Source of the DNA: a virus
Taxonomy: Duplodnaviria; Caudoviricetes
IMG/VR virus record: IMGVR_UViG_3300011423_000006
Coordinates: 60,303 to 124,302 of that record
Direction: 5' to 3' (one strand)
Length of the DNA stretch: 64,000 bases
Shown: piece by piece, positions 38,087-62,881 of the stretch
Position numbering within the stretch: the stretch's first letter is position 1
Layout: each line of letters begins with the position of its first letter
The notes under the pieces: model-generated
The model's database searches: none
Told to the model about the DNA's origin: nothing
The model's input: only the letters and a program-made list of their open reading frames with translations
Position numbers and translations under genes: made by a program

Positions 38087-41000
38087 TTATGTGCCTGTGG
38101 CGCAAACAGAAGCGACCCTAACTTTAATGCCATTGACATAAGAATTCCAAACTGTATAATGTTTGCCGCTTTCCAGTTCGTAATTGGCACTTATTAGAAC
38201 ATGATAACCCGTCGCATCTCCAGTTTTTAACTCAATTCCGGTAACGTAAAGTTTTTCTTTGCCGGATAAAGGCCCCCAAATTTCTGTTGGTCCGGGGCGG
38301 ATAATAAACTGATTTGGGGAAATGTAAGACCCCGCTTCGCTCATGATTTTAAGTTGAAATCCTCTTGCAATGTTTTCACTTACCATTGGGATAATTCCGC
38401 TTAATTGATAAACAGTTCCAACTAAATTAATAGAAAAACTAGTTGGATAATTATTAAAATAAAATCCTGTTATATCTCTAATTCCCGAACCGCTAATTTT
38501 AACCCAATTTCCGGTAATATCCTGCGTCGGGAAAAATCCTGACATATGTAGATTTTCAATATAAGTGAAATAATTAGTTGAAACAGTATTTCCGAAATTA
38601 GTATAAACATCAAATTGTCCCGAGCGTGGCGCATAATTAGCAGGAGGATAGAATGTGATTTGTGACAATCCGCTACTTGCCAAAGTGCAAAGACTACGAG
38701 TTGCCCCGGATAATAAATATACTCCGGTGGTTCTACTTAGACTAAATCCATTCAAAGTTACTAAAGTATTTTGATTGCCTCGGTCTGGAGTAAAAGAATC
38801 AATAGTTGGGGCGCTTTGTAATATATTGATATTTCCAGTGAGAGTTTGAGGGCCAACTCCAGATATCATTTGGGAACTTCTTAGACCCGCAACTGTTGTT
38901 GCCGTTGAATAAAATGAATTAACTAATAATAAAGCCCCGGTTCCGGCGAAATCAGTATTTAAAGTAAAAGTAAATACGGTAAAACCAGTCGAAGGACTAA
39001 CAATACCCGCTCCGCTAATTTGACTATAATTAACGGTGGCGGCACTATTAACAATATTCGCTAATATTCCATCTCCCGTTGCAAAAATAGCGGTAGACAA
39101 GGCGTGTCCTGCGTTAATTCCAGAAATTACAACCGTTGTTCCGGTTGTTGCACTCGCGGGCGCGAAAGCTCTAATTGTAGGTAACGGGTAAAAAGCTCCG
39201 GTTGTCCCGTTAAATAAACGCCCTAATCCGCTAATTAAAATTGGACCGTTTACAATTTCCCTTGGAACAGTAAATGTCGCCCCGGTGCCATTAATGACGC
39301 TCACGCTTCCTGCTTCTACATACCTTCCTGAATTGATATTTGGGAAGAAGAAGGTACAACCACTTAAATTATTACCCGAAATTCTGACGGTAGATTGATA
39401 AACGCCAGTATTCGGAGTGTAGGAATTAATAACTGGAGTAGGAATAATAGTAAAATTAGATGAACTAGTAATTGTTGCTCGATCTGTTCTAACTTTAATT
39501 GGTCCTGTTTTTGTGCCATTGGGAACGTTAATTCTAATTCCAGTACTACCGATAATCGAAAAACTAGATTCTCCTATTGAAATATCTCCGGTATTTCCCG
39601 AGAACAAAACATAATCTACATAATTAAAATTACTTCCCGAAATAGAAATTGTGTCTTGCCAATAGCCGCTTGTTGGAGTAAATAAACCAATAGTTGGATA
39701 CGCGCTTAATACTTCAAAAATTCCTGTAGAACGAACCGAGCCGCCATTATAATACAAAGAAATATAATCTGTATTTGCGCCCGTTGGAACGGTAGCAGTA
39801 ATGCCAGTACTTCCAATAATACTGAAAACAATCGCTTGCCCCGAACCAAAATATACGCCCGTAGTATTACTTAAATTTGATCCAGATATTGAAACAAAAT
39901 CGCCAAAAGCTCCCGAAGTAGGTCTGAATCCACTTATTCCCGGCGCTTGAATTAATCTTAAACCACTAATACCTGTTACCCAACCATATTGATTATATAA
40001 TATGATATCATTAAAACCCGTTCTAGCCGCAACCGGAATATAAAATTGAATTGAATCATGACCAGTTGGAATAGAGCCGGTTAATACAGTGGCTTCTACG
40101 CCCGTAGTATTAAAATAAATTCTAGAATCAGGATACAGATTTCTTCCTGTAAACGTAATTAAAGCTCCCACCGCTCCGCTACTAGGAGTAATATTATAAC
40201 GAATTGGAACGGTACGAATGAAAACTCCGCTATATCCTGTTGCGCTACCTTCTGGAGTAGTAATGACAGTGTGATAATATCCGCCCGTTCCTAGAGGATA
40301 TTGAAAAGCAATTACATCTCCTAGTTGACTTGTAGAAATTTGAGAAGTAGGAATGGTAAAAGTACCAGTCGTTCCTGATACCCGAACCGAAGATACTTCG
40401 AAAAAGTTAGTACCTTCTAATACTGCGTAACCAGAATAAAAACCAGTTTGAACACCGCTGCTTGTAATTGTTGGAGGGTGATGCCTTAATTTGAAAAAAC
40501 CAGTCGAAGCATATGGATTTAAATCAGGATCATATAAAAAGACCGCCCCGCTTTTAGCGTTATATGGAACCAAGCCCGTTAATCTTGTAGAATTAATTCG
40601 AATAAAATGACCCGTAACGTCGCCCCCTCCGAAACTAACTAAAAATGAATTAGTTGTATTTGGAATTTTATATAAAATATCTTCGTAAAAATTAAATCCT
40701 AAAATTTCAATCGCGCTTCCGGTGCGAGCACTACTAGGACTCAAGCCGGTAATTGTAATATATGCGCCGAAATCTGTAGTAGAAGAAACGCGCACGCCGC
40801 TTTGTCCTAATAAAGTAATACGGCCTCGAAAATTGCCAGTTGGTACTAATCCTGAAATGCCCGTATTTGTCAAAACTCTAAAAGTAGTTGTAAACGGGCT
40901 AACATTTGGTAAATTATTAAATAAAACTCCAGTTATGCCCGAAAATCCATAACCTTGAATAATAACTGTTTCACCCGTATTACCCGTAACAGGGGTAAAT

Positions 41001-42271
41001 CTTGTAATTCTTGGAATAGGAACGAAACTTTGTTGAGATAATCCCGAAATTCCTCTTTGACTTGATACTACCCAAATTTTTCCCCACGCGGCATTTAAAG
41101 GAACTGTAGCTTGAATCATAGTCGGAGACAAAACTTGAAAACTTGAGTCTACTCCGGTATTAAAAATAACTTGGCTAATACGATGATAATTACTGCCCGA
41201 TAATCGAACAGAACCACTAATTTCTCCCGTAATTGGGATAATCCCCGAAATAGTAATTGCATGATGGACGGGAACAAAGTTATTATTGCTGTAAACTGTG
41301 CCGCCATGATTGGTTACTGATACCAATCCGCTAATAGCGTCATCCGGCACAATGCCACTAACTTCCGTATCGCTTACCGGAATGACTGTTACACTAACCC
41401 CTCCAATATTAATCGATGAAATTTGACCCAAGTTTGTTCCTATGATTTGGAATCTTGAACCGGGAGACGCCGTTGGAGTAAAACTAATAATTGTAGGAGG
41501 ATTGTCTACATAATTTTGTTTAATATTGATTGTGGAACGAACAAAGTCTCCAACGGAAGTTCCGATGCTGCGTTGAAACAAAACCCCGCTCACGCCAAAA
41601 GATTCGTTGACCGCAACAATATCAGGATGGTTGAAATTAATATTAATTCCGGCTCGTTTTCCGCTTACTGGTAAATCGCCACTTAAATTATCAAAAGTGA
41701 TAGATGCGCTTAACTCCTTGGGGCCGTAAAATACTCGAAAGGGAATTAACTCGCCCGCCCGATACGAAGGCTGAATGTCGGCTCCAAAATTAAAAGATAA
41801 ATTTGTTATGTTGCTAATATTACCAATGTTTCCATTAGTTGGGTCCGAGACGGAGGCATAAGCGACATTCAAAAAATTTGCTTCGGGGGCAATTTCATAA
41901 GTAGGACGAAATTCTCCTTGTAGTTGATCGAAAAAGATAATATCAGCATTTACTACGGCTGTTTTATTTGGCAGGCAGTTTAAAATATATGATTTTAAAT
42001 AACCGCTATTGAAATAAAGCCCTCCAAAATTTCCTGAAATAACCCCTGCTTCATTAGTAATGAACGTTTTTAAAGGGTCGAAGCCGGTTAAGTAATAACT
42101 ACATGAAAATACTCCACCAATCCCTTCAGTGGGCGTATAAGTAAAGGAATGACGATTCTGAGACAAATATAAAGGAGAAACGCTGGCCTGAATATTAATT
42201 TGAGCGTCAGTAGCAACAACGCCGGAATTATTAATTAGAATTTTTGAATTTTTATAGGAATAGAAAGACAT
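38087..42271 (-). CDS. tail-tube-like N-terminal domain followed by about 11-12 IPT/TIG (Ig-like) repeats
   Basis: First ~250 aa align by eye with the 280/295/390-aa proteins; repeats of the form P.I.sFtP.sG..G..v.isG.Nf...V.F...I.a.VP. Confidence 0.75.
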   Translation of the reverse strand: MSFYSYKNSKILINNSGVVATDAQINIQASVSPLYLSQNRHSFTYTPTEGIGGVFSCSYYLTGFDPLKTFITNEAGVISGNFGGLYFNSGYLKSYILNCLPNKTAVVNADIIFFDQLQGEFRPTYEIAPEANFLNVAYASVSDPTNGNIGNISNITNLSFNFGADIQPSYRAGELIPFRVFYGPKELSASITFDNLSGDLPVSGKRAGININFNHPDIVAVNESFGVSGVLFQRSIGTSVGDFVRSTINIKQNYVDNPPTIISFTPTASPGSRFQIIGTNLGQISSINIGGVSVTVIPVSDTEVSGIVPDDAISGLVSVTNHGGTVYSNNNFVPVHHAITISGIIPITGEISGSVRLSGSNYHRISQVIFNTGVDSSFQVLSPTMIQATVPLNAAWGKIWVVSSQRGISGLSQQSFVPIPRITRFTPVTGNTGETVIIQGYGFSGITGVLFNNLPNVSPFTTTFRVLTNTGISGLVPTGNFRGRITLLGQSGVRVSSTTDFGAYITITGLSPSSARTGSAIEILGFNFYEDILYKIPNTTNSFLVSFGGGDVTGHFIRINSTRLTGLVPYNAKSGAVFLYDPDLNPYASTGFFKLRHHPPTITSSGVQTGFYSGYAVLEGTNFFEVSSVRVSGTTGTFTIPTSQISTSQLGDVIAFQYPLGTGGYYHTVITTPEGSATGYSGVFIRTVPIRYNITPSSGAVGALITFTGRNLYPDSRIYFNTTGVEATVLTGSIPTGHDSIQFYIPVAARTGFNDIILYNQYGWVTGISGLRLIQAPGISGFRPTSGAFGDFVSISGSNLSNTTGVYFGSGQAIVFSIIGSTGITATVPTGANTDYISLYYNGGSVRSTGIFEVLSAYPTIGLFTPTSGYWQDTISISGSNFNYVDYVLFSGNTGDISIGESSFSIIGSTGIRINVPNGTKTGPIKVRTDRATITSSSNFTIIPTPVINSYTPNTGVYQSTVRISGNNLSGCTFFFPNINSGRYVEAGSVSVINGTGATFTVPREIVNGPILISGLGRLFNGTTGAFYPLPTIRAFAPASATTGTTVVISGINAGHALSTAIFATGDGILANIVNSAATVNYSQISGAGIVSPSTGFTVFTFTLNTDFAGTGALLLVNSFYSTATTVAGLRSSQMISGVGPQTLTGNINILQSAPTIDSFTPDRGNQNTLVTLNGFSLSRTTGVYLLSGATRSLCTLASSGLSQITFYPPANYAPRSGQFDVYTNFGNTVSTNYFTYIENLHMSGFFPTQDITGNWVKISGSGIRDITGFYFNNYPTSFSINLVGTVYQLSGIIPMVSENIARGFQLKIMSEAGSYISPNQFIIRPGPTEIWGPLSGKEKLYVTGIELKTGDATGYHVLISANYELESGKHYTVWNSYVNGIKVRVASVCATGT

Positions 42272-42272: not shown

Positions 42273-43115
42273 TTAATAAAATTTAGAGACTTCTACCGCC
42301 GTTTTCACAAAATCGTCCAGTTGGACGTTAATTTCAGATGTTTTAATGCGAGTTCCAGATAATGAAATAATCAAGGATGGAGAATTGACGCCCGTAGATG
42401 CAATATAATGATATGGTAACAAATTAATTTCATTGTCGTTGTTTTTTTGTAAAAAAGCTGTAGAAGATTCTCTACTTGCTTCTTCGCCGCTAAATTGAAT
42501 ATTATGAAAAACATCTCTGACAAATGACATACTTTCGGACATTTGCATAAGTTCGACTTGATTAGATAAAGAGTTCGCGACGGTAAAAACCGGGCTCCAG
42601 TCTATTTCTAAATTATAATTAAAATCATAAATAGGAACGGTTAAATAACTATTTCCCGATAGAATTTGAGTTGTCCATCCGTGAGCTAAAAATCCACTAA
42701 AATTACTAATAGAATTTTCTCCCGAAATACGGGCTCGTAAAACTCCTGAGAATGGTTTGTAAGTAGTAAAAGCAGCTTCAGCCTTGACTAATTGATTAGG
42801 AGCGCTTTTCAGACTATAACTTGTTAAATAGCAATTGAATCCAGTCACCCCACCAATTACGATGTTAATTCCATCATAACTTCCTGTTAAATTTTTAAAT
42901 GTATTGGTTAGGGGAAAAATCGGCTCTGATAACAAATTAATATAATAAGAAAAATTGACTGTTCCCTCGATCCCGTCTTCGGGGATTTGATTGAAAATCC
43001 CGCGCCGTCCTATTCCATAAACAGGTTGTATATTATTACGCGCCCGGATAGTGGCAGAATCCGCCAAAATACCCGAATTATTCACAGAAATATGACAAGC
43101 ATCAAAATAAACCAT
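42273..43115 (-). CDS. tail-tube-like protein (paralogue)
   Basis: QPVYGIG...GTVNFSYY...NCYLTSYSL pattern shared with the major tail protein. Confidence 0.6.
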   Translation of the reverse strand: MVYFDACHISVNNSGILADSATIRARNNIQPVYGIGRRGIFNQIPEDGIEGTVNFSYYINLLSEPIFPLTNTFKNLTGSYDGINIVIGGVTGFNCYLTSYSLKSAPNQLVKAEAAFTTYKPFSGVLRARISGENSISNFSGFLAHGWTTQILSGNSYLTVPIYDFNYNLEIDWSPVFTVANSLSNQVELMQMSESMSFVRDVFHNIQFSGEEASRESSTAFLQKNNDNEINLLPYHYIASTGVNSPSLIISLSGTRIKTSEINVQLDDFVKTAVEVSKFY

Positions 43116-43136: not shown

Positions 43137-43143
43137 ATTACAC
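43137..43143 (-). promoter_or_regulatory. GTGTAAT putative late promoter
   Basis: GTGTAATATATAAAAAGGTTAAAGGTCAATG. Confidence 0.6.
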
Positions 43144-44030
43144 TAACTTTGCCCCGCGCTTCCCGAATCTCCCGAGTTATAATATCCCTTGTAAACAGCC
43201 GATATAATTACCGGCCCTTCTGTTCCTGCTGTTTGTTGCTCCTGAACCAAAAAAAGATTTGGGAACGTATAATTTGTAATTAAACTATCGTCAGAATGTG
43301 AGCGTAAACTTAAAGAAATATTTTTTGTTTTGGGCTCGTAAGGAAATTTATGAACCTGATGGGGGACATAATCATTTACAACAAACTGAAACCCTAATAC
43401 AACTTCGATTGGATAATTGATTTCTACTTTAGTAGGTACGCGAATTCCTAAAGGATAGATTGCGTTTCTATTGATATTAATAGATAAATCATATGATAAC
43501 ACTCGATTTGTCGTAAAGTCATCTAAATTTAAAGTAATTGCACCGGGGCTTGTAATATTAGGGGATAAAACGGCGGACCCGCCAGTAATTGCAGCAAATT
43601 GGCCGGAAACCACTACCGATTCGGCGGCGGTAAGTCTTCCGACATTTCCGAACGCAACAAAATCTACGGAAATTTCTGGAATTTGTCCTATAGAACATCT
43701 TGAGTTATAAGATGTTAGATATCCGCTGACGAAAGAAAAATTTTCAGCATAATTATCACGGCTTTTAATTAAATATCCATTAAATCCGGTATTGCCCGTT
43801 AAAGAAAGAAAGGGGTCGCTTCCAAGAACTAATGTATTAATATTACATCCGGCGCTAGGAGTTCCATTAGGAACAAAAACCGGATTACCCATGCCAATGA
43901 ATTTTAAAGGCGAAGCATTTGATTCATAATTTACATTTATGCTTTGAATCCCAAAGATTTCCCGAGTATTTAAAAAGAACTTTTGTTGTTCCCTTCGAAT
44001 GTTTTCTTTGGTGATGAAATTGTTAGACAT
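43143..44030 (-). CDS. tail-tube-like protein (paralogue, possible baseplate tube protein)
   Basis: GIQSINVNY, GYLTSYNSRCSIGQIP, VLSYDLSININRNAIYPLG, NYPIEV match the major tail protein. Confidence 0.65.
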   Translation of the reverse strand: MSNNFITKENIRREQQKFFLNTREIFGIQSINVNYESNASPLKFIGMGNPVFVPNGTPSAGCNINTLVLGSDPFLSLTGNTGFNGYLIKSRDNYAENFSFVSGYLTSYNSRCSIGQIPEISVDFVAFGNVGRLTAAESVVVSGQFAAITGGSAVLSPNITSPGAITLNLDDFTTNRVLSYDLSININRNAIYPLGIRVPTKVEINYPIEVVLGFQFVVNDYVPHQVHKFPYEPKTKNISLSLRSHSDDSLITNYTFPNLFLVQEQQTAGTEGPVIISAVYKGYYNSGDSGSAGQS

Positions 44031-46340: not shown

Positions 46341-47083
46341 CTTCCAAAATTAAAAAAGAGATAGTTCGATTTTCTGAAAGAAACCCGGCGATTGAATCAG
46401 GGGGGTTAATTTTTCAACGTGGAAAAAGTATTGTCGCGCTTCCGTGTTTAAATGTTTCTCCTACTCCCAAGGAGCATTTTTTAATTGCCCAAGAGGAAAT
46501 AGCGGTACATTCAGCACCGCCCTTTAAAATTTTGGCATTTTGGCATACACATGTTGATACGGATAGTTCTCCAAGCGAAGGCGATAAACTCGTAGCAGAA
46601 AGATACAATATCAATTCAATTGTTTACTCATTGAAAGATCATGGTTTTAATGAATATGAGCCGATAGGTTTGGAAGTTCCATTTGTAGGACGTAATTTTT
46701 ATTTTGGGTTGCAAGACTGTGTTCAGTTAGTCATTGATTATTATCAAAGAAGATTGAATATTAATTTGCCGTATCCGGTCGAAAGTCCTTTTTTGGTTAT
46801 TCCTCCTGATCAATGGGCATCGCACCCCGATAATCGGAAAGATAACTATTTTGTTCGTGATTATTTTGCTAAGTTTGGATTTTCTGAAGCGTCCAATCTT
46901 AAAAAAGATGATGTTTTAGTTTTTAGCTTTGGAATAATTAAAGCGCCTTGTCATTTAGCGGTTTATTTAGGAAATGGACGGATATTACATCATCGTTACG
47001 AAATGATTTCCGAAGAAAGCATTTATAACAATTATTGGAAAAGGCATTTATGTCATATCTTAAGGCATAAGGATATAGTATGA
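46328..47083 (+). CDS. tail assembly protein gpK-like, copy 2 (JAB/MPN plus NlpC/P60)
   Basis: ESGGLI, WHTH...PSEGD; QDCVQLVIDYY, HLAVYLGNG, LHH. Confidence 0.85.
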   Translation: MQYLTSKIKKEIVRFSERNPAIESGGLIFQRGKSIVALPCLNVSPTPKEHFLIAQEEIAVHSAPPFKILAFWHTHVDTDSSPSEGDKLVAERYNINSIVYSLKDHGFNEYEPIGLEVPFVGRNFYFGLQDCVQLVIDYYQRRLNINLPYPVESPFLVIPPDQWASHPDNRKDNYFVRDYFAKFGFSEASNLKKDDVLVFSFGIIKAPCHLAVYLGNGRILHHRYEMISEESIYNNYWKRHLCHILRHKDIV

Positions 47084-47754
47084 AACATAATTTAGTTGAA
47101 GTAAAATTACATGGGAATATTTTTCCCAATCTTAAAAATTTATATAAATTAGCGGTGCGTTCAGTGAGCGAAGCGATTCATGCCGTTAATATGATTTCTC
47201 GTAATCATTTCTATAAAACATTATTAGAAAACGATAAAAAAGGGATAAAATATAGAGTATTGATTAATGGACGAGATTTTGTATCTACTGAGCCGTTAAC
47301 AACAAATAATTTAGAAAAAATTAAAGAATCGGAATTAGTTATGCAATTATCTAATCTTCAAACTATTGATATCGTGCCCGTTGTAGAGGGCGCGGATAGT
47401 GATATTGGAGCTATTATTGCGGGAGTTTTATTAGTTGTGGTTGGTATTGTGGTTGGGGTTGTGGCTGGATGGACTGGAATTGGAGGCGTATTTGCGGGCG
47501 CGTTAATTGTTGGGGGGCTTGGATTAGTCGCGGCGGGAGTGATTAACTTATTAAGTTCGCCACCAAAATTTGAAGATTTTAGAGAAATCGGGGGTGGGGG
47601 CAGGGTTTCGTATTTGTTTAGCGGGCCTCAACAAACGGTAAATGAAGGCGGGCCTGTTCCGCTAGGATATGGAAGGCTTTTGATTGGTTCGCATGTTATT
47701 AGTGCAAGCTATGAAATCAGTGAGGTATCAGCTAAAGAAAGGCTAACGGTTTAA
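47080..47754 (+). CDS. tail assembly protein, lambda gpI-like
   Basis: VKLHG, SVSEAIHA, IDIVPVVEGA, Gly-rich hydrophobic hairpin, SYLFSGP, VPLGYGRLLIGS. Confidence 0.9.
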   Translation: MKHNLVEVKLHGNIFPNLKNLYKLAVRSVSEAIHAVNMISRNHFYKTLLENDKKGIKYRVLINGRDFVSTEPLTTNNLEKIKESELVMQLSNLQTIDIVPVVEGADSDIGAIIAGVLLVVVGIVVGVVAGWTGIGGVFAGALIVGGLGLVAAGVINLLSSPPKFEDFREIGGGGRVSYLFSGPQQTVNEGGPVPLGYGRLLIGSHVISASYEISEVSAKERLTV

Positions 47755-47757: not shown

Positions 47758-50700
47758 ATGGCATTAGATGACAATCTAAATAATAGGATAATCATTCAGG
47801 CGTGGAAAAAGAAACAACGCCAGCAAGAAACGCGCTATCCCGTTGAAGACCCGGAAGGCGTAGATAGTACTGCTTTTCCTCGCCGCGAGCCCTTTGAAGA
47901 AACTCCCGGTGTGGTTTCGTTGAGTGAAATAGAAACTCTTGATTTGTTATCAGAAGGAAGAATCAGTGGATTAGCCGAGGGGGAATATAGTTTTGTTGGG
48001 ACAGCCGGAAACGTGGGATATACATCGGCAACTTATACACCCTATGCTCTTGCGCCCGATACAACAGTTAGATGGTTGCGTTCCGTTTATTGGAATGAAG
48101 TGCCCGTAGTGAATTCTCAAAATCAATTTAATTTTCAATCAATCGATACTGCGTTTACCGTAGGACAACCCAACGGTTCTTTAGTTGGATTACTAAGTAA
48201 TGAACTAACCGTTTCTCGTCAAATAGGAGAGCGATTAAGATACGGAACTGATTTTGCTAAAGTTTATCGACTTTTTAACCGCGAAATTAAAGCTTTCGAA
48301 GTAAATATAAGATTTAATGCTTTATCTCAGACCGTTACTAATCCGAGTGAATACGGAGACGTTGAGGCAATTTTGGTAGAATGTTATGTTCAATGGCGAC
48401 CCTTATTTTCAACTACCGGCAAAACCCCGTCAACTTTTCCAAATACATGGTGGGTACCCGTTAAAGGAAAAATTACAAACGGATATATTGAAAAAACTCG
48501 TATTAACTTAGTTACAGCCGGTAACTTGGTATATGAGCCTGACTTTCTTGGATGGGAAGTTAAAGTTTATCGAACGACTCCCGATGCAACTACCGCCAGC
48601 GTTAGAAGTCAAACCTATATAGATTCAATTACAGAAGTTTTTGGAGACGTATTCACTTATCCTAATTCCGCAATTATTTCTTCTCGGTTTAGCGCGGAAT
48701 ATTTTACTCAAGTTCCGGCGCGGGCTTTTGATACTTATCTATTAAGAGTAAAAGTCCCAAGTAATTATGATCCTATTTTAAAAAGTTATAATGGTGATTG
48801 GGACGGAACATTTAAAGATGATAAAGAATGGACGGATAATCCCGCTTGGTGTTTTTATGATTTAATTACAAACAAACGTTATGGGTTAGGAAAACATATT
48901 AGCGAAGACCAAGTAGATAAATGGACTTTATATGAAATTGGAAAATATTGCGATACTTTAGTTTCCAATGGAGAAGGCGGAATTGAACCTAGATTTACTT
49001 GTAATTTGTATATTAATTCAAGAGAGGAAGCTTATAATGTCGTTAATAATTTAGCCAGTATTTTCCAAGCGATGACTTATTACTTTGCAGGTTCTATTTA
49101 TACTTCGCAAGACGCTTTGAAAGAGCCTCTTTATTCATTTACAAACGCTAACGTCGAAAATGGAGATTTCAGCTATTCATCTAGTAGCCGTCGCGTTCGC
49201 CACACTACGGCAATGATACGTTATAATGATAAAAAGAATTTTTACAAACCCGCCGTCGAATATGTTGAAGATTTCGAGGGGATTCGAAAACTTGGAATTA
49301 GAGAACTGGAATTGACGGCTTTTGGTTGCACAAGTCGCGGGCAAGCTTGGAGACAGGGGCGATGGGCTCTATTAAGCGAAACCCTAGAAACGGAAAGCGT
49401 TTCGTTTACGGCAGGATTAGAAGGAGCTTATTTACGCCCCGGTGATATTATTCAAGTTCAAGATAATCATCGCACAACGCAAAGATTTGGAGGGCGAGTT
49501 TATCGTATTTATGATTCGTCTCATTTATTATTAGATGGACAAGTTACCGGGCTTTCAACTAATTCTTTGTATTATTTTTCTCTAGTTACTCCAACTTTTA
49601 ATTATGAGCCATCTTTAGTTAATTTATCAGATAGTTCCGAATCGGATCAAATTCGTAACTCCCAAGTTCAAAAACGCACATTTTTAGGTTCTCAAGTAAC
49701 TCCTGTAACGGGCGATGACGGCATGATACGTTCGGATATTACTTTTAGCGCTCCCTTTGATGTTGCTAACTATGTTTTAACGGGAAGCCCTGTTTGGACT
49801 GTAGAGGGGTCTGGAATTAGTAATTCCTTCTCTAATCAATGGAACTATTACCGTGTTTTACGCACCGAAGAACAAGGCCAAAATCGTTTCGCGGTGTCTG
49901 CAATCCAATATGAAAGCGGGAAATTCGCGGCTATAGAATCCGGGTTAAATTTCGAAGAACCTAATTATATTAATGTTCTGCCAACCGGACCAACAAATTT
50001 ACAATTATCTGTATTACCACTTTCGACTAATACTAAAAAAATTGACTATCGTTTTACTTTACCCGATGATGAAAATATAAATTCTTATAAAGTATATATC
50101 AAGAATGGGCCTTGGGCGGGGGAAAGCGATTTTGATTCCAGCACTTATTTGGCGGCTAATTTACAAGGGCATGAAAGTCAAGGATCATATTATCCCACAA
50201 CTAATGGAGTTTATTATTTCCGGGTTTATTCAGTAAGTCGTTTAGGAAGCCGGTCTTCCACCTATGCGGCGGGCAACATTGAAGTCGCCGGAATGAATGC
50301 CCTAAAAGATATTTTAATTGGCGGGCTGGTTTTGGAAGAAGAAACTACAGATAGCACTACTGGAGGGACGAAGAAAAACAGTACGGCCATTGGTTCAGAT
50401 ACCGTTTTTAAATGGCAATTAGGTTTACAAGAAAATGGGTCTTATCAAACTGGATTGTATTATAGATTCACGGCTCGCGAGCCAAGTAATAATAGCGTTC
50501 CAACTAAACATATCTATTTCCAAAGAACGGGATTATTAAGGGGTGCGGTGAATAATTTAGCTTATGAGTTCACTTTTTATGATAATACTCTAGCAATATC
50601 AAATCAAGGCGCTCCGGGGCCATTTAGAACTTATGATGCCGTAATTGAAGGTATGTTAGCCGATGGAACAAGTACGGCAGGAGGGAATTTTGTTCTGAAT

Positions 50701-52369: not shown

Positions 52370-55300
52370 TTATCTCTTGGTTTGTTCGTAAATCAATCCT
52401 CCGGGTCTTGATTGTTCGATAATAACTTTCAAGATAGCGCCTTCGAATTGTGTTCCCAATTTACGATTCGATTCCTCGTTAGAGCCCGCGCCCTCACTAC
52501 GAGTTTCGGTTTTGCCTTGGGCACCGCCGTTTTTATCGCTAGAGATTTGAATGGTATTATAGACGTTAATAACCGGTGCATTAGAATTGGTTTTACTTTC
52601 CGCATTGGCTAAAGACCCACCCCCTCTAACTTCTTTCATAGTTAGAGTTTTTTCCAAACTTTCTCGTAAAGATTCGGTGCTGGCAATTAAACGAGTTAGA
52701 TTTTCTGTTAATTTATCACTACCGTTATTTCCAACGCTTTGAGAAGCTTCTCCTGCTAATCCGCCCGCCGCAAACTTGCCAGCGTTCAAACGATTGAAAA
52801 AATCAACTCCATATTTACTCACAGAGCCGCGATTCATTACAAACTCGCCGCCCATTAATAAAGCAGGAACATTATCTCCCCCGGATAAACCACCGGCTGC
52901 AAAACGTTTAATCAAACCACCCATTGCATGTCCGCCGCCAAATCTTTTATATGCGTCGGCAGAACCATAGGCGCTTTGGCCAGCCGGAACTAAATGATTG
53001 CCACTCGCCCCACTAGAAGAACCGCCCCAATTTATGTTTTGCATTCCCGCTTGCGCCCCCGCCCCCGCCAAACCAATTCCGGCTGCAAGATAAGCGGCTT
53101 GAACACGTTGACGCTTGCCTAACTTCCAATTATACATAGCTATTGATTTAGCTTCTTCGTAGTTGGAACGATCCCTTAAATATTGCATTAAGGCGCTTTC
53201 ACGATCCATTCGAATGGCGTTTTGTGGATTATCATCGTTACTTAGTGCGTAATTAGATAAATTAGAACTAATATTATTAGAACCAGCCGTAGGGAATTTA
53301 GCATCATTATAACTATAAGAATTAGCTAAACGAGCCGACACGCGACCAGAATTTAAAGCTTTTAATAATGAAGTACCGTATTTATTGACGGAACTTTTTT
53401 TGATTACATATTCGCCTTCGCTTAACATAGCGGGAACATCGTCTCTTGTGCCCGATCCGCCGTAAACACTTCCGCCCCCGGCAAATTTCTTGATATACCC
53501 TCCATTTGCCTTGAATAAACCGCTAATTCCATTGACTGCCGCCCCCGCAAACATATCAAAGCTTGTATCAATAGATTTGCTTAGAATTTTATCTGCGAAA
53601 TTAATTCCAAAAGATTTTAATGCTTCGCTGGCATCTAAACTTCCGTTGGCAAATTCTTTAAATGCATCTTTAAAAGATGATTTTAAATTTTGTCCCACTT
53701 CAAATGCCCCCTCATTTAAATCACGGTATAAATCTTGAGTATCATAACGTAAACTATCTACAAAAGAAACTCCCGTATCTTTACCAACATTATAACGGCC
53801 AAAATCTTGAGGGAACAAAATTTTATTATTGCGAGAATCAACCATTGACGAACCGAAATCATCGCTAAACATTTCCTTGCGTCCGTACATCATTTTTTGA
53901 TAAGGACCGTTCATGAAACGAACCATTTCTTTTTCCTCTGCGGTTCTTTCTTTTAAAATAAGGGCTCCAACTTTTAATTCATTTTCAAAAAATTTAACTT
54001 GTTCATTTGCTCCCATTAATTCAGTTTGAAGCTCTCTTAAACCATCTTGTAAATCCATGTGCAAATTAGGGTCTAATTGACTGAAGGGGGTTGTTCGTGC
54101 TACGTCTTCAAGTTCCTTCATTAAATTAATAGCATCGCCCATTTGATCATTATTAATTAAATCAGTTATCTCTTGTAAAGTATTAAAAGCTCCTTCAATA
54201 TTTTTTAAAGCTTTAGGAGACATGGCGGCATTTTCCATTAACTTCCGGCGTAATCCCCCAACTGCGTTATCTCCAAAGGCGGCAAATTTATTTCCTAATC
54301 CTGAAGTTAGATTAGTACGATTCATATTACGTTGATTTTCTAAATTGTGTACACCTAAAATGTGTGCGTAATCAAGTTTCCCGCGTGGACTTTGAAAAGC
54401 TCCTTGTTTTTGCATCCAAAAATCGGCATCCATTGTTGTTCTTTCGTTGCCAACTTGAGTTAATAAGGGCGCGTTTAAACCTATAGCCATTCGTGCTATT
54501 TGGGTTTTTCGCATTGAATCGCGTAATTTATTAATATCGCCTAAATATGCTAAATGATTTACGCCTAGAGTTGTTCTGGCAGGTAATTGAGCGTCAGCGA
54601 CGGTGCCTTGACCAGTTAAAGCTCTGCGTTCGGCTTCGGAATAATTTTCTGCTTTTTGACGAGAATAATATTTTAAACCACCCGTAACGGCTCCTATACC
54701 CGCTCCAATTGTTGCACCTACCCCACCGCCAAACATTGTTCCTGTACCGCCATACATCAAAACATCTGAAATCCATTCATTTCTTGCTAATGCTTTTCGA
54801 TCATCGGAAAAATTTGGATTATACAAATCTGAAATTGCGGAATTCACCATTGGCGCGGCTAAACCGATCCCCATACCCACCGCTGAATGTTTTCCTATGA
54901 AACTGTTTAAACGAGACATGCGACCGGGGCCGCGAGATTCATAACCGGAACTAAAAGGATTTCTTGCATTGCCGCCGAATGGATTTCTCCATCCACCCAT
55001 AATTCCGCTCATCCAGCCTTGTTTTGGTTGTTGCCACATTCTAGAATCGTAATCTTGTCTCCAGTTGGCCATTCTAGCTTGTTGAAAAACTTCAGGCGGC
55101 GGACCTTCTGGAATCATATATTTAGGAAAAGCGCGAGCAATACTATATTGTGGATTATCGCCATATATACGTCGCGCAATCGTGCTAGAATTATCAAAAG
55201 CTGCTCCTAAGTTATAACCTTGAGCAATAGCAGGATTAGAATTAGAAATTGCGGGTTCCATTCTAATATTATTTAATGCATTAGCGCTAGGGGCTCTAAA

Positions 55301-57532
55301 CTTTAAACCAGCCTCACCTTGAAATAAAATTTGTTGTTGGGCGGCGGCGTGTCTTGCCATCGTCGCGTTTGCCGAAACCGTATTACGTGCGTCTCGCATT
55401 CCAAAAAACATAGGAAACGTTTCTGCCCCGCCATACATGCCCGCTCTTGACACCCCCGCTTGTAATTGAGAAGGGGCTGTTCCGGTTCTTGTGTTATAAG
55501 CGTAAGTAAAAGATTGAGTTAATCGTCTAACTGATTTTTCGTCGGCATTAAATGTTTTGGCTAATTTTTTCGCCATTTCATTTAATTCCTTCATGTTTTT
55601 AATCGTGACTTGTTGAGTGCGTATTTCCTCAATAATACGATCACGTTCGCTAGTCATCATTTGATTATAACTAGCAGGCATTGGTGCATTGAAAGAATAA
55701 GGATTATTACTTGCAAAATTAGGAACACCGTGAGTTGCGGGGTTTAACCCCATTGACCTAGCCCTAGAAATACCTTGAGATAATCCGCCCGGTTCATCTC
55801 TTAAATTATAAACTCCTAATCCTCGCGGATTTAAACTAGATTTTAAAGCGGGGTGACTTCCTACGCGAATTAATGAAGATGGAATGCCGGATGCTTGCTC
55901 TCTAGACATAGCTTCGGCTACAGGAGAAAAACGAGGGGCCGCAGGCATTTTTATGCCTCCACCCGCGCCGACTCTTGCCCCTGCATTAAATAAATTAGCG
56001 GCAACAGGAGCGACGGTTTTATTTACCGCTGTTTGGACGGCGTTTGTTGCGTTTACTGTGGCTAAAATTTCACGTTGCAATTCTAGCTCGGTCATTTTAC
56101 CCTGAACAATACGATTAATTAATTCTGGTTGACGCGCTAAAGAATTAGCAATTAATTGATGTATTTGAACTTGTTGTTGCAAAGCGTTATTCATTCCAGT
56201 GAACGATTTAACAGCTTCTTTTGTGAAAACGATTGCGTCCCGAACTAATTTACCAAAAATAATACCCGCGCCTAATAACGCCGGTCCTGTTAGGAAATCT
56301 CCCAAACCTTCTAAAATATTTTTACCTGCCCCTTGTCTTAATTCGCGAATTTTACCCCCCGCCGCGTCTAACATCATTAAGAAATCTCTTAAAGGTTCGG
56401 CAAAAGTTAAATTACCTATTACTACTCCTAATTCAGTAAAACGAGTTTTAACAGCGTTAATTTGTTGAGACAAACTTTTGTTTTGTTCCGCCATGCGAGT
56501 ATAGGCTTCATTTTGTGCCGACGCTGCCGTTTGAGTGGCCCCCGTAAAAACCCCCATTGAATTAGCCATATCATCCATCACGGCGCGGAATTTATCAGAT
56601 TGATAAAGATTTGCTCCAACGGAAACGATCATGTTTTGAATTTGTTGATTTGCGCCTTGGTAATATTTTGCCAAGTCTTGCAACAAATCAGCTTGGCTTC
56701 TAATATTATGATTTGTATCTTGAATTTCTATTTTTAAATTTTCTAAAAATTGCAAACTATCAGGATTTTGCATTCTTTGAAAAATAGTTTTGAAAGCGTT
56801 GCCGATTTCCGGCCCGGAACGTTGGGTAATTTGAGCGACCGCAGTAATTAATCCGAACAATTCATTAATTCCAACCCCGGCATCGGCAGCAGTAGAACCA
56901 ACTTTTTGTAGACCTTCAACCAAATCCGCCGCGCTAACAGCGTATTTTCGGTCCACCGCAATTAGTTTGTTCAAAACTTGCGCGGTAGTAATACCGGTTT
57001 TGGCATAAGTATTCGTAACGGCTGTTAATGCTTTGACCGCATCTTGGGCGCTCATTCCACCTTGATTAACCAAAATCATTGCATCATTAACCCGCTTTAA
57101 TGTTTCTTCAACGCTTAACCCTTGACGCGCTAATTCTTGAGCCGATGCAGCAACCGTTTTCCAGCTTTGTCCGGTTTTACGAGCTACGTCAAACATGGCA
57201 TCGCCAAATTCATTAATATTAAAATTAACGTCATCTACAATAACTTTAATATCTATCAAGCTTTTTTCGACTTCAATCGTAGACCTGACAAGGGCCTGAA
57301 ATGCTCTTGTTACGGTCATAATAACGGCGGCGGAAGCTCCGAAGGCAGTAACGCGAGCAAATGCGGCTTCCATTGATTTATCGAATTCAGAAGCGGTTTT
57401 ACTTAACCGCCCCAAGGGAAGATTTAAATGGCGTTCGATTTTTTGGCCGATTTGGGCGGCTTGTTGAAATGCTTGTTGTCCATCCAGTTTGACAACTGCA
57501 TCAATAATCATGTCAGATTGTGCATTAGGCAT
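52370..57532 (-). CDS. tail tape measure protein
   Basis: 1720 aa, helical and Ala/Gly-rich; TP901-type core (ELARQGL, GPEIGNAFKTIFQR); two D.VPA.L..GE.V motifs. Confidence 0.92.
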   Translation of the reverse strand: MPNAQSDMIIDAVVKLDGQQAFQQAAQIGQKIERHLNLPLGRLSKTASEFDKSMEAAFARVTAFGASAAVIMTVTRAFQALVRSTIEVEKSLIDIKVIVDDVNFNINEFGDAMFDVARKTGQSWKTVAASAQELARQGLSVEETLKRVNDAMILVNQGGMSAQDAVKALTAVTNTYAKTGITTAQVLNKLIAVDRKYAVSAADLVEGLQKVGSTAADAGVGINELFGLITAVAQITQRSGPEIGNAFKTIFQRMQNPDSLQFLENLKIEIQDTNHNIRSQADLLQDLAKYYQGANQQIQNMIVSVGANLYQSDKFRAVMDDMANSMGVFTGATQTAASAQNEAYTRMAEQNKSLSQQINAVKTRFTELGVVIGNLTFAEPLRDFLMMLDAAGGKIRELRQGAGKNILEGLGDFLTGPALLGAGIIFGKLVRDAIVFTKEAVKSFTGMNNALQQQVQIHQLIANSLARQPELINRIVQGKMTELELQREILATVNATNAVQTAVNKTVAPVAANLFNAGARVGAGGGIKMPAAPRFSPVAEAMSREQASGIPSSLIRVGSHPALKSSLNPRGLGVYNLRDEPGGLSQGISRARSMGLNPATHGVPNFASNNPYSFNAPMPASYNQMMTSERDRIIEEIRTQQVTIKNMKELNEMAKKLAKTFNADEKSVRRLTQSFTYAYNTRTGTAPSQLQAGVSRAGMYGGAETFPMFFGMRDARNTVSANATMARHAAAQQQILFQGEAGLKFRAPSANALNNIRMEPAISNSNPAIAQGYNLGAAFDNSSTIARRIYGDNPQYSIARAFPKYMIPEGPPPEVFQQARMANWRQDYDSRMWQQPKQGWMSGIMGGWRNPFGGNARNPFSSGYESRGPGRMSRLNSFIGKHSAVGMGIGLAAPMVNSAISDLYNPNFSDDRKALARNEWISDVLMYGGTGTMFGGGVGATIGAGIGAVTGGLKYYSRQKAENYSEAERRALTGQGTVADAQLPARTTLGVNHLAYLGDINKLRDSMRKTQIARMAIGLNAPLLTQVGNERTTMDADFWMQKQGAFQSPRGKLDYAHILGVHNLENQRNMNRTNLTSGLGNKFAAFGDNAVGGLRRKLMENAAMSPKALKNIEGAFNTLQEITDLINNDQMGDAINLMKELEDVARTTPFSQLDPNLHMDLQDGLRELQTELMGANEQVKFFENELKVGALILKERTAEEKEMVRFMNGPYQKMMYGRKEMFSDDFGSSMVDSRNNKILFPQDFGRYNVGKDTGVSFVDSLRYDTQDLYRDLNEGAFEVGQNLKSSFKDAFKEFANGSLDASEALKSFGINFADKILSKSIDTSFDMFAGAAVNGISGLFKANGGYIKKFAGGGSVYGGSGTRDDVPAMLSEGEYVIKKSSVNKYGTSLLKALNSGRVSARLANSYSYNDAKFPTAGSNNISSNLSNYALSNDDNPQNAIRMDRESALMQYLRDRSNYEEAKSIAMYNWKLGKRQRVQAAYLAAGIGLAGAGAQAGMQNINWGGSSSGASGNHLVPAGQSAYGSADAYKRFGGGHAMGGLIKRFAAGGLSGGDNVPALLMGGEFVMNRGSVSKYGVDFFNRLNAGKFAAGGLAGEASQSVGNNGSDKLTENLTRLIASTESLRESLEKTLTMKEVRGGGSLANAESKTNSNAPVINVYNTIQISSDKNGGAQGKTETRSEGAGSNEESNRKLGTQFEGAILKVIIEQSRPGGLIYEQTKR

Positions 57533-59819: not shown

Positions 59820-60677
59820 TTATATTACACTTTTTAACCTGTTTTCTACTAAAGTTTTTTTAATATGTTCTTTATACCATAGGGGACGAGTATTGGAATA
59901 GTGAAAACACTGTTTTTGTTCTTTAGGGTCTTGCAAATTAAATAAAATACAAGGTTTTATATGGTCAATTTGCCATTTTCCCGGCCCACAACCATAATTA
60001 TCCCATGACATTTCTGAATCAAAAAGAGACTCCAAATATTTACGGTAATCCACGAAAGTACACCCTAATAAACTATTAGTTTCAATATTTTTAGTTGCAT
60101 TATGTGATTTTACTACTTTTTTAATTCGGCTCCGAATATTAAGAGCAATACGGGCCTGTTCCTTGCGATATTGCCAATGATTTACTAGTATTTTTAATAT
60201 TTGAGGAAAACGGGCGACTCCAAAGCAAAAGGCTTGGAATTTTTGTTGTTTTTCTTGCTGCCAGTTTGATTTGCGTTTTTGTTTAATGTGTTTTTGATAA
60301 CTTGGAGAGTTATAATGATCGAGCTTTCTTTGTTTAATAATTTCTTTATTTTTGCCGCGATATTCTTTTGAAGATTCGGCGGCTCTTTGTTTGTTTGATT
60401 GATAATACGATTTGCTACGTTGTTTAATTTTATCCGAGTTTTTTTTATAATATTCTTTTTGATTTTTAAGGTCTTTGTCCCGGTTTCTCCAATACCAATT
60501 CATTTTGGACTTTCGCATTTTATCTCTGTTTTGATGATAATCAATTTTTCGTATTTTGTTTCTACATTCTCGGCAAATATTCATTAAACCATCTTTTCCA
60601 TATTTCCACTTGTTAAAGCTTTCTACCAGTTTCTCCGTTTTACAATGTGAACACCTTTTATTTAGATTTGATATCAT
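59820..60677 (-). CDS. free-standing HNH-type (homing) endonuclease
   Basis: N-terminal CSHC...CREC, basic helical repeats, LLGC, MSWDNYG, WQIDHIKPC, CFHYSNTRPLW. Confidence 0.8.
   Translation of the reverse strand: MISNLNKRCSHCKTEKLVESFNKWKYGKDGLMNICRECRNKIRKIDYHQNRDKMRKSKMNWYWRNRDKDLKNQKEYYKKNSDKIKQRSKSYYQSNKQRAAESSKEYRGKNKEIIKQRKLDHYNSPSYQKHIKQKRKSNWQQEKQQKFQAFCFGVARFPQILKILVNHWQYRKEQARIALNIRSRIKKVVKSHNATKNIETNSLLGCTFVDYRKYLESLFDSEMSWDNYGCGPGKWQIDHIKPCILFNLQDPKEQKQCFHYSNTRPLWYKEHIKKTLVENRLKSVI
59824..59830 (-). promoter_or_regulatory. GTGTAAT putative late promoter inside the HNH gene 3' end
   Basis: GTGTAATATAATAATAGGTAAAGGTAGATTAAAGGTTTATG. Confidence 0.55.
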
Positions 60678-60771: not shown

Positions 60772-61944
60772 TTATTGGACAGTTGTGACCCCACTCATAA
60801 ACAAACCAACCGTTGTCTGGTTTGGGCCACCGATTTGTGCTGCAAATTCCATAGTAACCGTTTTGTTATCACCGATGCCGTTGCTGTAGGAATGACTATT
60901 GATTTTAGCATTCTTCACAACATAGCGAGCCATAACGGGTTGAGGGTCGCCCGGAGCTACGGGTTTTTTGATATTAATGGTTACGTCAAACGAATCGTCT
61001 CCGTTGACCATATCGCTTAAAGAGCCCGTAGTTAAATCGCCCACAAGAGCGTCAACAGTCAAACTTACGTCGATTGGATAGGTAATTGTGCGGGCGAAAG
61101 CATATTTGCTACCAAGTTTTTGTAAAGCTTCTCGTCCCAAATCGAAAGAAAGACTATAGCTTTGAATATTAGCATTGCCGATATTAGTTCCCGGAACGTC
61201 ATAAACGCCGGTCGCATTTTCGAGAATACCTTCATCAACTGCATCTCGTTTTCTAAAGTCCAATGTAATATCACCGGGCCTCAAAACACTGATATCAAGC
61301 AATCCTGTCCCCGGACTACTTAGAATTGTAGGAATAACGTAATGATATTGAGAAACGCGGGTTCCGTTGTCTGGGAAAATAGCAGGCGACTTACCGGAAA
61401 GACCGGTGGCAAAAGTCATGTTTAATGCCGCAACACTGATATCAACACTTGGGAAACTGTTTACCGCCGCAGATGATGAATAAGAAGTTAAAAATCCATT
61501 ACCAAATCCAACGACAAAGACGTTAGAAGAATCTTCCGTATCTCCTACGGCGTCAACTCCTTCTGCAACTACTTTAAGAAAATAATTACGATCATCAGTT
61601 AATCCCTTCGTAATACCAGACAAAGCGGGCAAACGACCGTCAGTAACAAAGCCTAATTGTCTTTCGTTCCAGAAATTTGCTAACAAATAACTAAAAGAAA
61701 GTCCAACAGTTGGAGTATCCAAAATAACTCGATCAATTGCGGCTGTTTCCCCGAATTGCATAACGGGAGTTCTGCCTACATTAAAAGAGTAATTACAGTT
61801 CTGAATACGATAAAAGCCGGTAAGCAAATTAGCGCCGGTATATATAGATTCGGCTCCAAATTGCGTAAAGTGTTGGCCAGTTGAAACCGGAGGGCCAATC
61901 AATAATGATTGAGATTGGTATGTTGTTCTATTTCTATTTGGCAT
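60772..61944 (-). CDS. major tail tube protein (internally duplicated tube fold)
   Basis: Between neck genes and chaperones, with its own promoter-like motif and terminator; two similar beta-rich halves (RIQNCNYSF...GRTPVMQFG and NIQSYSLSF...GREALQKLG). Confidence 0.75.
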   Translation of the reverse strand: MPNRNRTTYQSQSLLIGPPVSTGQHFTQFGAESIYTGANLLTGFYRIQNCNYSFNVGRTPVMQFGETAAIDRVILDTPTVGLSFSYLLANFWNERQLGFVTDGRLPALSGITKGLTDDRNYFLKVVAEGVDAVGDTEDSSNVFVVGFGNGFLTSYSSSAAVNSFPSVDISVAALNMTFATGLSGKSPAIFPDNGTRVSQYHYVIPTILSSPGTGLLDISVLRPGDITLDFRKRDAVDEGILENATGVYDVPGTNIGNANIQSYSLSFDLGREALQKLGSKYAFARTITYPIDVSLTVDALVGDLTTGSLSDMVNGDDSFDVTINIKKPVAPGDPQPVMARYVVKNAKINSHSYSNGIGDNKTVTMEFAAQIGGPNQTTVGLFMSGVTTVQ

Positions 61945-61970
61945 AAAATTAAATTAATTCCTATACATTA

Positions 61971-62011: not shown

Positions 62012-62881
62012 TTAGATTCTTGGGTTTCGGACGCTTTCTAGGTATAAATCAATGAGTTTAATAAAGACATGCGGGTTTATCTTGCGAATCTCAGAGTAAG
62101 CACTACCGGGAAGGCTGCTAACATCAACATTCTCAATCCACATTGAATTACTCATAATGTTTCTGCCAGCGGTCAAAGCCCTATAATTATAAAGTCCATT
62201 TGTATAGTCTCCAAAATCGTCAAAAGGCATTTCTTCGACCCCCGTTAATAAAGGAATCAAAGTTCGGGCCTTTTCCTTGAAAATAGAGCCAACGGCATCG
62301 GCTCCAAATTGAGAATCGGCAAAAACCAGCATTCGAACATTAATCATTTCCTTGTCCAAGCCTCCGAACGCAAATGGGTCAAGACGGCCCCCAAAATCCT
62401 TGATATAAACAACAGGAAATGTAGTATCATTAGGACTTAAACCAGTAATAAATGTAAACCCGGCCTTAGGTTTTATTTCATGTTTTGTTTCAAATAATAA
62501 TTCTTCTTCGGGCGAACTAGTGATTTTTACATTAAATTCTGCGACTGAAAAATTGCCGGAAAGTCTTGTGTGTGAAGCGGTTATTTCGTTTTCAAAATAA
62601 ACTTGACCCTTTTCATAATTAATATGAGCCAATCCTGATTGACCTGTAGTTATGAAAGTGTTATCTAGGTAAACTCCCGTCATGACATTCGCGCCAGAAA
62701 TTGCCGCATTTGCAACTAAAGGTTGAAAAGGCAACGAATAAGTATAGTAATTATTAAAAATATCTTTTACATCATAGAAAAAGCCTGAATAATTAGTAAA
62801 AGCATCGCCTTTATCTAATAAAGTGTGTTCTATCCAGCATTTAACCGATGCCATTACCTTATGTATGTGTTGGACTCTCAT
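62012..62881 (-). CDS. probable tail terminator / neck protein
   Basis: Position before the major tail gene; FPVVYI and PFAFGG segments. Confidence 0.5.
   Translation of the reverse strand: MRVQHIHKVMASVKCWIEHTLLDKGDAFTNYSGFFYDVKDIFNNYYTYSLPFQPLVANAAISGANVMTGVYLDNTFITTGQSGLAHINYEKGQVYFENEITASHTRLSGNFSVAEFNVKITSSPEEELLFETKHEIKPKAGFTFITGLSPNDTTFPVVYIKDFGGRLDPFAFGGLDKEMINVRMLVFADSQFGADAVGSIFKEKARTLIPLLTGVEEMPFDDFGDYTNGLYNYRALTAGRNIMSNSMWIENVDVSSLPGSAYSEIRKINPHVFIKLIDLYLESVRNPRI

Follow-up and report, generated by a model that had tools for sequence, protein, structure and literature searches.

Over-use of Ser/Thr-Gly in tail proteins of an uncultured phage lineage, and a separate TibC-like enzyme encoded beside a tail fibre

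The window analyzed here, the right-hand 64 kb of the 124.3-kb virus record IMGVR_UViG_3300011423_000006 (CheckV completeness 64%), encodes several predicted tail proteins in which the dipeptide Ser/Thr-Gly ([ST]G) is over-used. We found that this signature is real, directional, limited to some of the tail proteins and unusual, and that it is independent of a predicted protein O-glycosyltransferase of the Aah/TibC (BAHT) family that is encoded in the same block. A sequence-only reading of the window had proposed that the glycosyltransferases of the phage coat the virion with glycans at [ST]G sites. We tentatively favour another explanation, under which the scattered sites would be a structural motif amplified in this lineage, and the TibC-like enzyme would belong to a separate system together with a neighbouring tail fibre.

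A directional excess in some tail proteins

Observed/expected (O/E) ratios, z scores and p values for [ST]G and for the reverse dipeptide G[ST] were obtained from composition-preserving shuffles of ~155 open reading frames (ORFs). A 1394-aa tail protein (38087-42271, minus strand), in which a tube-like N-terminal domain (residues 1-258) is followed by 12 IPT/TIG-like repeats (residues 259-1325) and then by a C-terminal part, contains 90 [ST]G (45 SG and 45 TG) against 35.9 expected (z 11.3), whereas G[ST] is not enriched (29, z -1.3); the proposed excess thus survives composition correction and has a direction. Among all 400 dipeptides, TG (z 7.3) and SG (z 7.0) are the two most over-represented in this protein, Ser or Thr precedes 56% of its Gly residues, and DG and GG are depleted. 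The 2559-aa fibre (26302-33981, minus strand), a protein with five long proline-free Gly-X-Ser tracts, contains 127 [ST]G against 67.5 expected (z 8.7), 51 of them within Gly-X-Y tracts. As the sequence-only reading had claimed, the excess extends beyond the repeats of the fibre: outside the tracts there are 74 [ST]G (37 SG and 37 TG) against 44.8 expected (O/E 1.65, z 5.1), with G[ST] at z -0.1.

The smaller proteins differ from one another in this respect. A 280-aa paralogue of the tube-like N-domain (42273-43115, minus strand; 10 [ST]G vs 3.4 expected, p = 0.0007) and a 289-aa protein (62012-62881, minus strand; 8 vs 2.8, p = 0.003) are borderline given the ~155 ORFs tested, and both hold at the family level. 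There was no individually significant excess in the 295-aa paralogue of the same N-domain (43143-44030, minus strand; 7 vs 4.2, p 0.11) or in the 390-aa major tail protein (60772-61944, minus strand; 10 vs 7.2, p 0.14). Neither negative control departs from expectation, namely the internal, Gly-rich tape measure protein (52370-57532, minus strand; 21 vs 21.3) and the exposed, lambda J-like central tail fibre (47758-51498, plus strand; 15 vs 16.1). DnaE (883 aa) has 3 [ST]G, and none of the remaining ORFs of the genome, including unannotated ORFs of 334-348 aa at the genome start, shows an excess. The hand counts behind the original observation proved exact for the five tail proteins (90, 10, 7, 10 and 8) and for DnaE, but the tape measure protein has 21 sites and not 18; the over-use that had been assigned to surface tail proteins in general stands for the IPT, 289-aa and 280-aa proteins and the fibre, whereas the major tail protein, the 295-aa protein and J show it weakly or not at all.

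The same division appears at the family level, for which O/E was computed across 62 related IMG/VR loci. The highest value is that of the IPT-rich proteins (2.31), and among 14 orthologues of the IPT protein (35-76% identity) O/E ranges from 2.2 to 3.0. The 289-aa family follows at 2.26 (553 [ST]G vs 245 expected in 66 orthologues with 33-76% identity taken from the protein database; G[ST] 0.72); a scan of viral contigs with the 289-aa protein as the sole query gave no match. Within the tube-like group, the N-domain has an O/E of 1.67, the 280-aa family 1.52 and the 295-aa family 1.18. Weak or no enrichment was found for the major tail protein (1.37; the family was represented by 101 sequences) and the J-like protein (1.14), and the minor tail-tip proteins (0.4-0.9) and replication genes (~1) show none. 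In the terminator-like (289-aa) and major tail protein families, O/E does not form a gradient with distance from the query. For comparison, 171 control ORFs of unrelated phages have a median [ST]G O/E of 1.14 with the 99th percentile at 1.97 (G[ST] 1.13), and only 1 of the 171 reaches an O/E of 2. Because the major tail protein and J are barely or not enriched, the excess is not a simple function of exposure. The most abundant of the exposed proteins are thus among those with little or no excess, which does not support the coating proposal.

An origin of the signal in composition, repeats or DNA-level bias is highly improbable. With its 12-fold internal repetition, the IPT protein does not provide independent sites, and the codons that precede GGN are skewed toward C or G endings. 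Nevertheless, the flat G[ST] excludes a local Ser-, Thr- and Gly-rich composition, orthologues with 37% identity share the excess, as does the non-repetitive 289-aa family, and the control phage ORFs lack it. The codon-pair bias spans the whole genome: a C or G ending is about twice as frequent in codons before Gly as in codons at other places, both for Ser and Thr (59% vs 31%) and for other residues (42% vs 25%), as if T|GG and A|GG junctions were avoided. Because it is present in all genes and at all residues before Gly, this bias is not specific to [ST]G. Taken together, these observations refute the artefact.

Two narrower definitions of the motif were also rejected. In the 1394-aa protein, position -1 is typically Ile, Leu, Val or Thr and position +2 is Ile, Val or Leu, and Asp and Glu together make up 4.8% of the protein. 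The tripeptide [ST]-G-S is not the motif, as Ser occupies position +2 at only 7 of the 90 sites, without excess. Likewise, the sites do not resemble those of proteoglycan xylosylation, in which Ser-Gly has acidic flanks; here the flanks are hydrophobic or small.

Related loci encode further giant proteins after the IPT gene that share the [ST]G bias, namely a 776-aa protein with ~65-aa repeats (NPQQF-NSGNL-TGSALDARL...ITISG; L001:15414-17744, O/E 3.05), in which Pfam detected no domain above the cut-off, and a 3431-aa protein (L008:15005-25298, O/E 2.37); neither matched the IPT repeat profile. In another locus, a gene for a PF13759 2OG-Fe(II) oxygenase (L054:14516-15163) is convergent to the end of the IPT-array gene, and ORFs of similar size occupy that position in L005, L011, L017, L021, L023, L028 and L043; there is no such gene at that place in the window. 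In contrast to its neighbours, one Gly-rich (12%) family of minor tail-tip proteins (47080-47754, homologues in 44 loci) has a deficit of [ST]G (O/E 0.42).

Fold consensus, conservation and placement of the sites

The repeats of the 1394-aa protein match PF20144 (26.5 bits vs the cut-off of 24), and orthologues carry PF01833. In an AlphaFold2 model, the IPT domains reach a pLDDT of ~90 and match plexin IPT domains in Foldseek (E 3e-12), and the N-domain, to which both ~290-aa proteins are paralogous, matches the siphophage major tail protein and T5 tail tip. The fold thus invites comparison with ordinary IPT/TIG domains (PF01833/PF20144) of bacterial surface proteins and plexins. Across 105 cellular IPT proteins, the median [ST]G O/E is 1.26, for whole proteins and IPT segments alike, with the 95th percentile at 1.67, against 2.5 in the phage clade. 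The gap is smaller when sites are counted per 100 residues (7.5 in the phage clade vs 4.95 in cellular IPT proteins).

To locate the difference, 147 phage-clade and 1136 cellular IPT domains were aligned to one profile. The cellular domains carry [ST]G mainly at hidden Markov model states 10 (0.53), 20 (0.67), 57 (0.82) and 25 (0.38), for a total of 3.7 per domain, and the first three correspond to the contexts P-x-S-G (0.53), I-T-G-x-N (0.67) and T-G-P-I (0.82). The phage domains use the same columns, with P-x-S-G, I-T-G-x-N-F and T-G-P-I before the last strands, and reach 5.3 [ST]G per domain. Given these two densities, about 70% of the IPT sites, being at columns that are [ST]G in cellular domains too, are ordinary consensus of the fold, and the remainder is specific to the lineage. 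The added sites fall in columns 4, 28, 36, 45 and 48. In four of these columns, Ser or Thr is already frequent in cellular domains (0.67-0.82; 0.21 at state 36), and only the following residue differs, Gly being present instead of Ser or Ala. The five added columns, together with fewer Ser and Thr elsewhere, raise O/E from 1.26 to 2.5, and 61% of Gly follow Ser or Thr in the phage clade as opposed to 39% in ordinary IPT domains. Accordingly, the suggestion that the excess goes beyond that of ordinary IPT proteins stands for the O/E ratio but has to be qualified for the individual sites, most of which come with the fold.

The sites are conserved. In ten full-length IPT orthologues, Ser or Thr before Gly is kept as Ser or Thr in 84% of alignment cells compared to 50% for other Ser and Thr, and Gly after Ser or Thr is kept in 83% compared to 65% for other Gly. 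Ser and Thr exchange freely at these sites, and 60 [ST]G columns are nearly universal among the orthologues. In the 289-aa family, sites 68, 108 and 146 are kept in 63-66 of the 66 orthologues; Ser and Thr interchange at 68 and 146, and position 108 is almost always Ser. This protein, which had been taken for a neck protein, gave no match in sequence-family searches. Its AlphaFold2 model (pTM 0.83) has a mixed alpha/beta fold, distinct from IPT, and the top Foldseek matches were consistently tail terminators (T4 gp15, T5 p142, lambda gpU and the Mu terminator; TM-score normalized to the target 0.35-0.5, E ~1e-3). Together with the position of the gene directly upstream of the major tail protein gene, the modelled fold suggests a tail-terminator-like protein. 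The motif thus occurs in unrelated folds, as had been noticed from the sequence: IPT, tail-terminator-like and fibre. In two AlphaFold2 models, half of the [ST]G sites are inside beta-strands and half are in the residue just before a strand.

A TibC-like enzyme in a fibre cassette

The minus strand of the region under study encodes the two ~290-aa proteins, the 1394-aa protein, two glycosyltransferase fusions and the 2559-aa fibre, and the plus strand carries lambda-like tail-tip genes (J-like and minor tail proteins); the tape measure, major tail and 289-aa proteins are encoded further to the right. The contigs that encode related proteins are metagenomic, 100-210 kb long and in some cases labelled Bacteroidota or Flavobacterium, and a collection of cultured phages contained no match for the IPT protein or the major tail protein. 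The tail block also contains a gene for a 285-aa endonuclease VII-like protein (59820-60677, PHROG 1035), which has the major tail protein gene on one side and the genes that lead to the tape measure on the other and may be a homing endonuclease insertion.

One of the fusions is a 695-aa protein (34010-36097, minus strand) with an N-terminal GT4 domain and a C-terminal Aah/TibC-family domain (residues 347-690). Residues 361-690 match TIGR04414 at 302.4 bits (curated cut-off 200), and the protein aligns to TibC (PDB 4RAP) with an E-value of 4e-52. The catalytic Asp110 of TibC, as well as Thr226, Lys230 and Trp305, align identically, as do all four cysteines of the iron finger (Cys339, 342, 358 and 370). 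By these alignments, the C-terminal half is a genuine member of the BAHT (Aah/TibC) family and a predicted protein O-glycosyltransferase, a point in favour of the earlier glycosylation proposal. Other positions differ from TibC. Pro300 is aligned to Ser, as in Aah, about 10 residues are missing around Phe265/Val266, that is, in the beta-hairpin thumb needed for the dodecamer ring, and Arg286, which in TibC makes the sole adenine-specific contact (PMC4358343), is aligned to Ala. Among the ORFs scanned in the glycan-gene island of the phage, no genes of the ADP-heptose pathway (GmhA/HldE type) were recognized, and the island encodes a GDP-mannose 4,6-dehydratase. Given the Arg286 replacement and this gene content, the predicted sugar donor may be one other than ADP-heptose.

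The enzyme gene lies immediately upstream of the fibre gene, between the latter and the IPT gene. The second fusion, a 650-aa protein combining GT4 and an FkbM methyltransferase domain according to Pfam (36094-38046, minus strand), belongs to a type that travels with BAHT genes in other phages. A Gly-X-Ser tract protein is encoded alongside in 32 of 80 phage BAHT loci, with homology limited to the tracts. By contrast, BAHT genes are not associated with IPT arrays: none of the 62 IPT-clade loci pairs a BAHT gene with a tract protein, and none has the fibre or either glycosyltransferase within 10 kb. The homologue of window positions 25487-26236 is the immediate neighbour of the IPT gene in L058-L060; the fibre and the two glycosyltransferase genes (26302-38046) are therefore a cassette, and one particular to this phage.

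The arrangement recalls the Aah-AIDA-I and TibC-TibA pairs of E. coli (TIGR04414; PDB 4RAP/4RB4). In each case, the enzyme gene is directly followed by that for a giant beta-rich surface protein, and the catalytic Asp, the residues contacting phosphate and heptose, and the four cysteines of the iron finger are all conserved in the phage enzyme. The phage enzyme differs in its fusion to GT4, in the Ala at position 286 and in the shorter thumb hairpin, and it is encoded next to a tail fibre that carries collagen-like Gly-X-Ser tracts, not next to an autotransporter. Ser-Gly is strongly over-used both in the AIDA-I passenger and in the fibre tracts. In the collagen-like repeats of BclA from the Bacillus exosporium, which consist of Gly-X-Thr/Ser triplets, the hydroxyl residue before Gly carries O-glycans. 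These repeats resemble the fibre tracts, although the enzymes and the organism are different and the comparison covers the tracts only, not the scattered sites.

The Ser-to-Thr ratio separates the tracts from the scattered sites. The AIDA-I passenger, encoded by the plasmid-borne Aah-AIDA-I pair of E. coli, contains 49 SG against 18.5 expected (z 8.6) and 7 TG against 14.5 (z -2.2); the claim that Ser-Gly belongs to BAHT targets is thus confirmed, SG being the dominant dipeptide of this established substrate. The same preference is found at the Y position of the fibre tracts (46 Ser and 4 Thr) and in BAHT-linked tracts of 22 other phage proteins (Ser 0.65, Thr 0.10), and TibC and Aah modify Ser, not Thr (PMC4358343). 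The scattered sites, however, use Thr as often as Ser, at 45:45 in the IPT protein and 37:37 in the fibre outside the tracts. Thus, the Ser-only signature of BAHT substrates is confined to the Gly-X-Ser tracts of the fibre and absent from the [ST]G-rich tail proteins, and co-inheritance with a BAHT gene likewise distinguishes the tract-bearing fibres from those proteins. Moreover, the scattered sites persist without the enzyme. In L058-L060, which lack the cassette, the O/E of the IPT protein is 2.3-2.4. One of two near-complete relatives has a BAHT homologue elsewhere, and the other, G002 (90% complete), has none and yet shows an O/E of 2.47 in its IPT protein; Ser and Thr at the IPT sites stand at 35:36 in G001, where BAHT is present, and at 36:35 in G002.

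These results bear directly on the proposal that [ST]G is a general sequon at which the TibC-like enzyme, with the other glycosyltransferases, coats every outer tail protein. The proposal has some appeal, since a BAHT domain with its catalytic residues and iron-finger cysteines is encoded in the stretch that separates the IPT gene from the fibre gene, SG dominates among the dipeptides of AIDA-I, of the two TibA sites that have been mapped one lies within NSGG (PMC4358343), and many of the motif sites are at loop-strand junctions, recalling the 'strand-loop-strand' acceptor of Aah. However, relatives that lack the cassette show just as large an excess, as does the BAHT-free genome, the Ser-to-Thr ratio is the same with or without the enzyme, known BAHTs are Ser-only with substrates depleted in TG, and phage BAHT genes pair with Gly-X-Ser tract proteins rather than with IPT arrays. 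In addition, the literature describes a structural motif and no linear BAHT sequon, and the BEMAP motifs feature Asn and Thr, not Gly (PMC5000012). We conclude that the scattered [ST]G sites are independent of the BAHT cassette, and consider a general [ST]G sequon of this enzyme very unlikely.

Possible roles of the scattered sites

The explanation we favour, albeit with somewhat less than even confidence, combines a motif borne by the folds and amplified in this lineage with a separate BAHT-fibre system. Under this model, the [ST]G pairs scattered over the tube-like paralogues, the IPT array and the terminator-like protein would most likely represent a structural strand-entry motif: a hydroxyl residue and, directly after it, a Gly with special conformational properties, placed where a short beta-strand begins or within it. 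The motif is already present at 4-6 fixed columns of ordinary IPT domains, and the lineage would have extended it by replacement of small residues (Ser or Ala) with Gly after an already conserved Ser or Thr; within each protein family, the sites are inherited position by position. The fibre, the GT4-FkbM gene and the GT4-BAHT gene would have been acquired separately as a cassette, whose TibC-like enzyme would most likely O-glycosylate the Ser residues of the Gly-X-Ser tracts. Glycosylation of the virion, at the fibre, by this predicted enzyme is plausible.

Several observations weigh against a purely structural role of the scattered sites. Independent structural needs do not readily explain why three or more unrelated folds of a single lineage share an excess in the same direction, and the capping or bulge function that the motif would serve is proposed from sequence. 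Residues typical of turns and bulges rarely replace the Ser or Thr in the IPT orthologues (Asn 3%, Asp 1%, Ala 2%), and DG is depleted. Outside the 60 universal columns, [ST]G is still 1.5-2.0 times over-represented in every orthologue, which suggests continuing selection for the motif itself, although misalignment of the repeats could inflate this figure. A proxy based on the hydrophobicity of strand faces assigned 6 of 12 assessable sites to the polar face and 2 to the hydrophobic face, with 4 unclear; of the 8 in-strand Ser or Thr with an assignable face, 6 are thus on the polar one. Finally, all relatives examined carry a glycan-gene island with a conserved GT4. A hydroxyl-specific pattern that spans several folds would be accounted for by lineage-wide glycosylation that does not involve BAHT, a possibility that we consider unlikely on the whole but take seriously.

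Under that alternative, the scattered sites would be acceptors of a glycosyltransferase conserved in the lineage, and the variable island would build differing sugars on the same protein scaffold. The candidate is a 360-aa GT4 (G000:47844-48926, equivalent to L145:2845-3927) encoded ~11.4-12.5 kb upstream of the window start. It is 52-54% identical in 4 of 5 relatives (G001, G002, G004 and G005), more conserved than the IPT protein, and lies at the edge of the variable island next to a conserved ORF of 121-130 aa and a class II ribonucleotide reductase; the island of the BAHT-less G002 encodes GT4, GT2, a UDP-GlcNAc 2-epimerase and a dehydratase. The directional, hydroxyl-specific and conserved excess across unrelated folds, with Ser and Thr interchangeable, would fit such a system, as would the enrichment of non-core sites. 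Use of the glycosyltransferase genes for DNA hypermodification was considered and rejected: the 64%-complete genome shows no sign of the hydroxymethyl-pyrimidine route to DNA glycosylation, its ThyA being an ordinary thymidylate synthase. A search for Tet/JBP enzymes found no match in any genome, controls included, and so says nothing either way. There is also a precedent, namely O-glycosylation of the virions of mycobacteriophages Che8, Corndog and Myrna, as reported by Freeman et al. 2023, cited in PMC12582341. The two systems have in common phage glycosyltransferases near structural genes and virion proteins as the proposed acceptors, but the modification was demonstrated chemically in the mycobacteriophages, whereas here it is a proposal drawn from sequence, and the major tail protein is barely enriched. 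Glycosylation of the mycobacteriophage virions reportedly affects capsid and tail tube subunits, and no [ST]G motif is said to have been described.

Other evidence makes clade-wide glycosylation the less attractive explanation. The co-occurrence of the GT4 with the excess is confounded by common descent, as no member of the clade lacks the island, and the GT4 gene lies ~50 kb from the tail genes, beside ribonucleotide reductase, and no resemblance of its product to any known protein glycosyltransferase was detected. The ordinary consensus of the fold accounts for most of the IPT sites, enrichment is slight at best in the major tail protein and J, and there is no excess in the unannotated ORFs at the start of the genome, a region that may hold head genes. 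Furthermore, we know of no O-glycosylation sequon that consists of [ST]-G with hydrophobic flanks. The island upstream of the window also encodes a RibB-like homologue of 3,4-dihydroxy-2-butanone-4-phosphate synthase (L145:12612-13211, E 2e-66) and an NDP-sugar C-methyltransferase (L145:9648-10910), which hint at an unusual branched or methylated sugar.

In its most extended form, which we regard as less likely still, the glycosylation scenario would make these phages an abundant aquatic lineage of large siphophages, probably infecting Bacteroidota, with an O-glycan coat on the tail. The core GT4 would prime Ser and Thr in a phi-[ST]-G-phi context on the IPT arrays, the terminator and the tube-like proteins, the fast-evolving island would build strain-specific glycans, and some members would, through a captured TibC-like enzyme, also glycosylate their collagen-like fibre tracts, specifically at Ser.

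What is new here is the column-level comparison of IPT domains, the contrast with AIDA-I in the use of Ser and Thr, the relative that lacks BAHT, and the conserved GT4. The separate BAHT-fibre cassette is the stronger candidate for glycosylation, and the Ser-versus-Thr ratio distinguishes likely BAHT substrates, such as AIDA-I and the fibre tracts, from look-alikes. If the scattered sites are structural, counts of [ST]G cannot be read as glycosylation sites without correction for the consensus of the fold, given that ordinary IPT domains already carry 3.7 of them each. If, on the other hand, the scattered sites are sugar acceptors, they would constitute a mark by which virion glycosylation could be recognized from sequence in a widespread lineage of uncultured phages and would provide a testable sequon along with candidate enzymes, with a bearing on host recognition, stability, and evasion of grazing or immunity.

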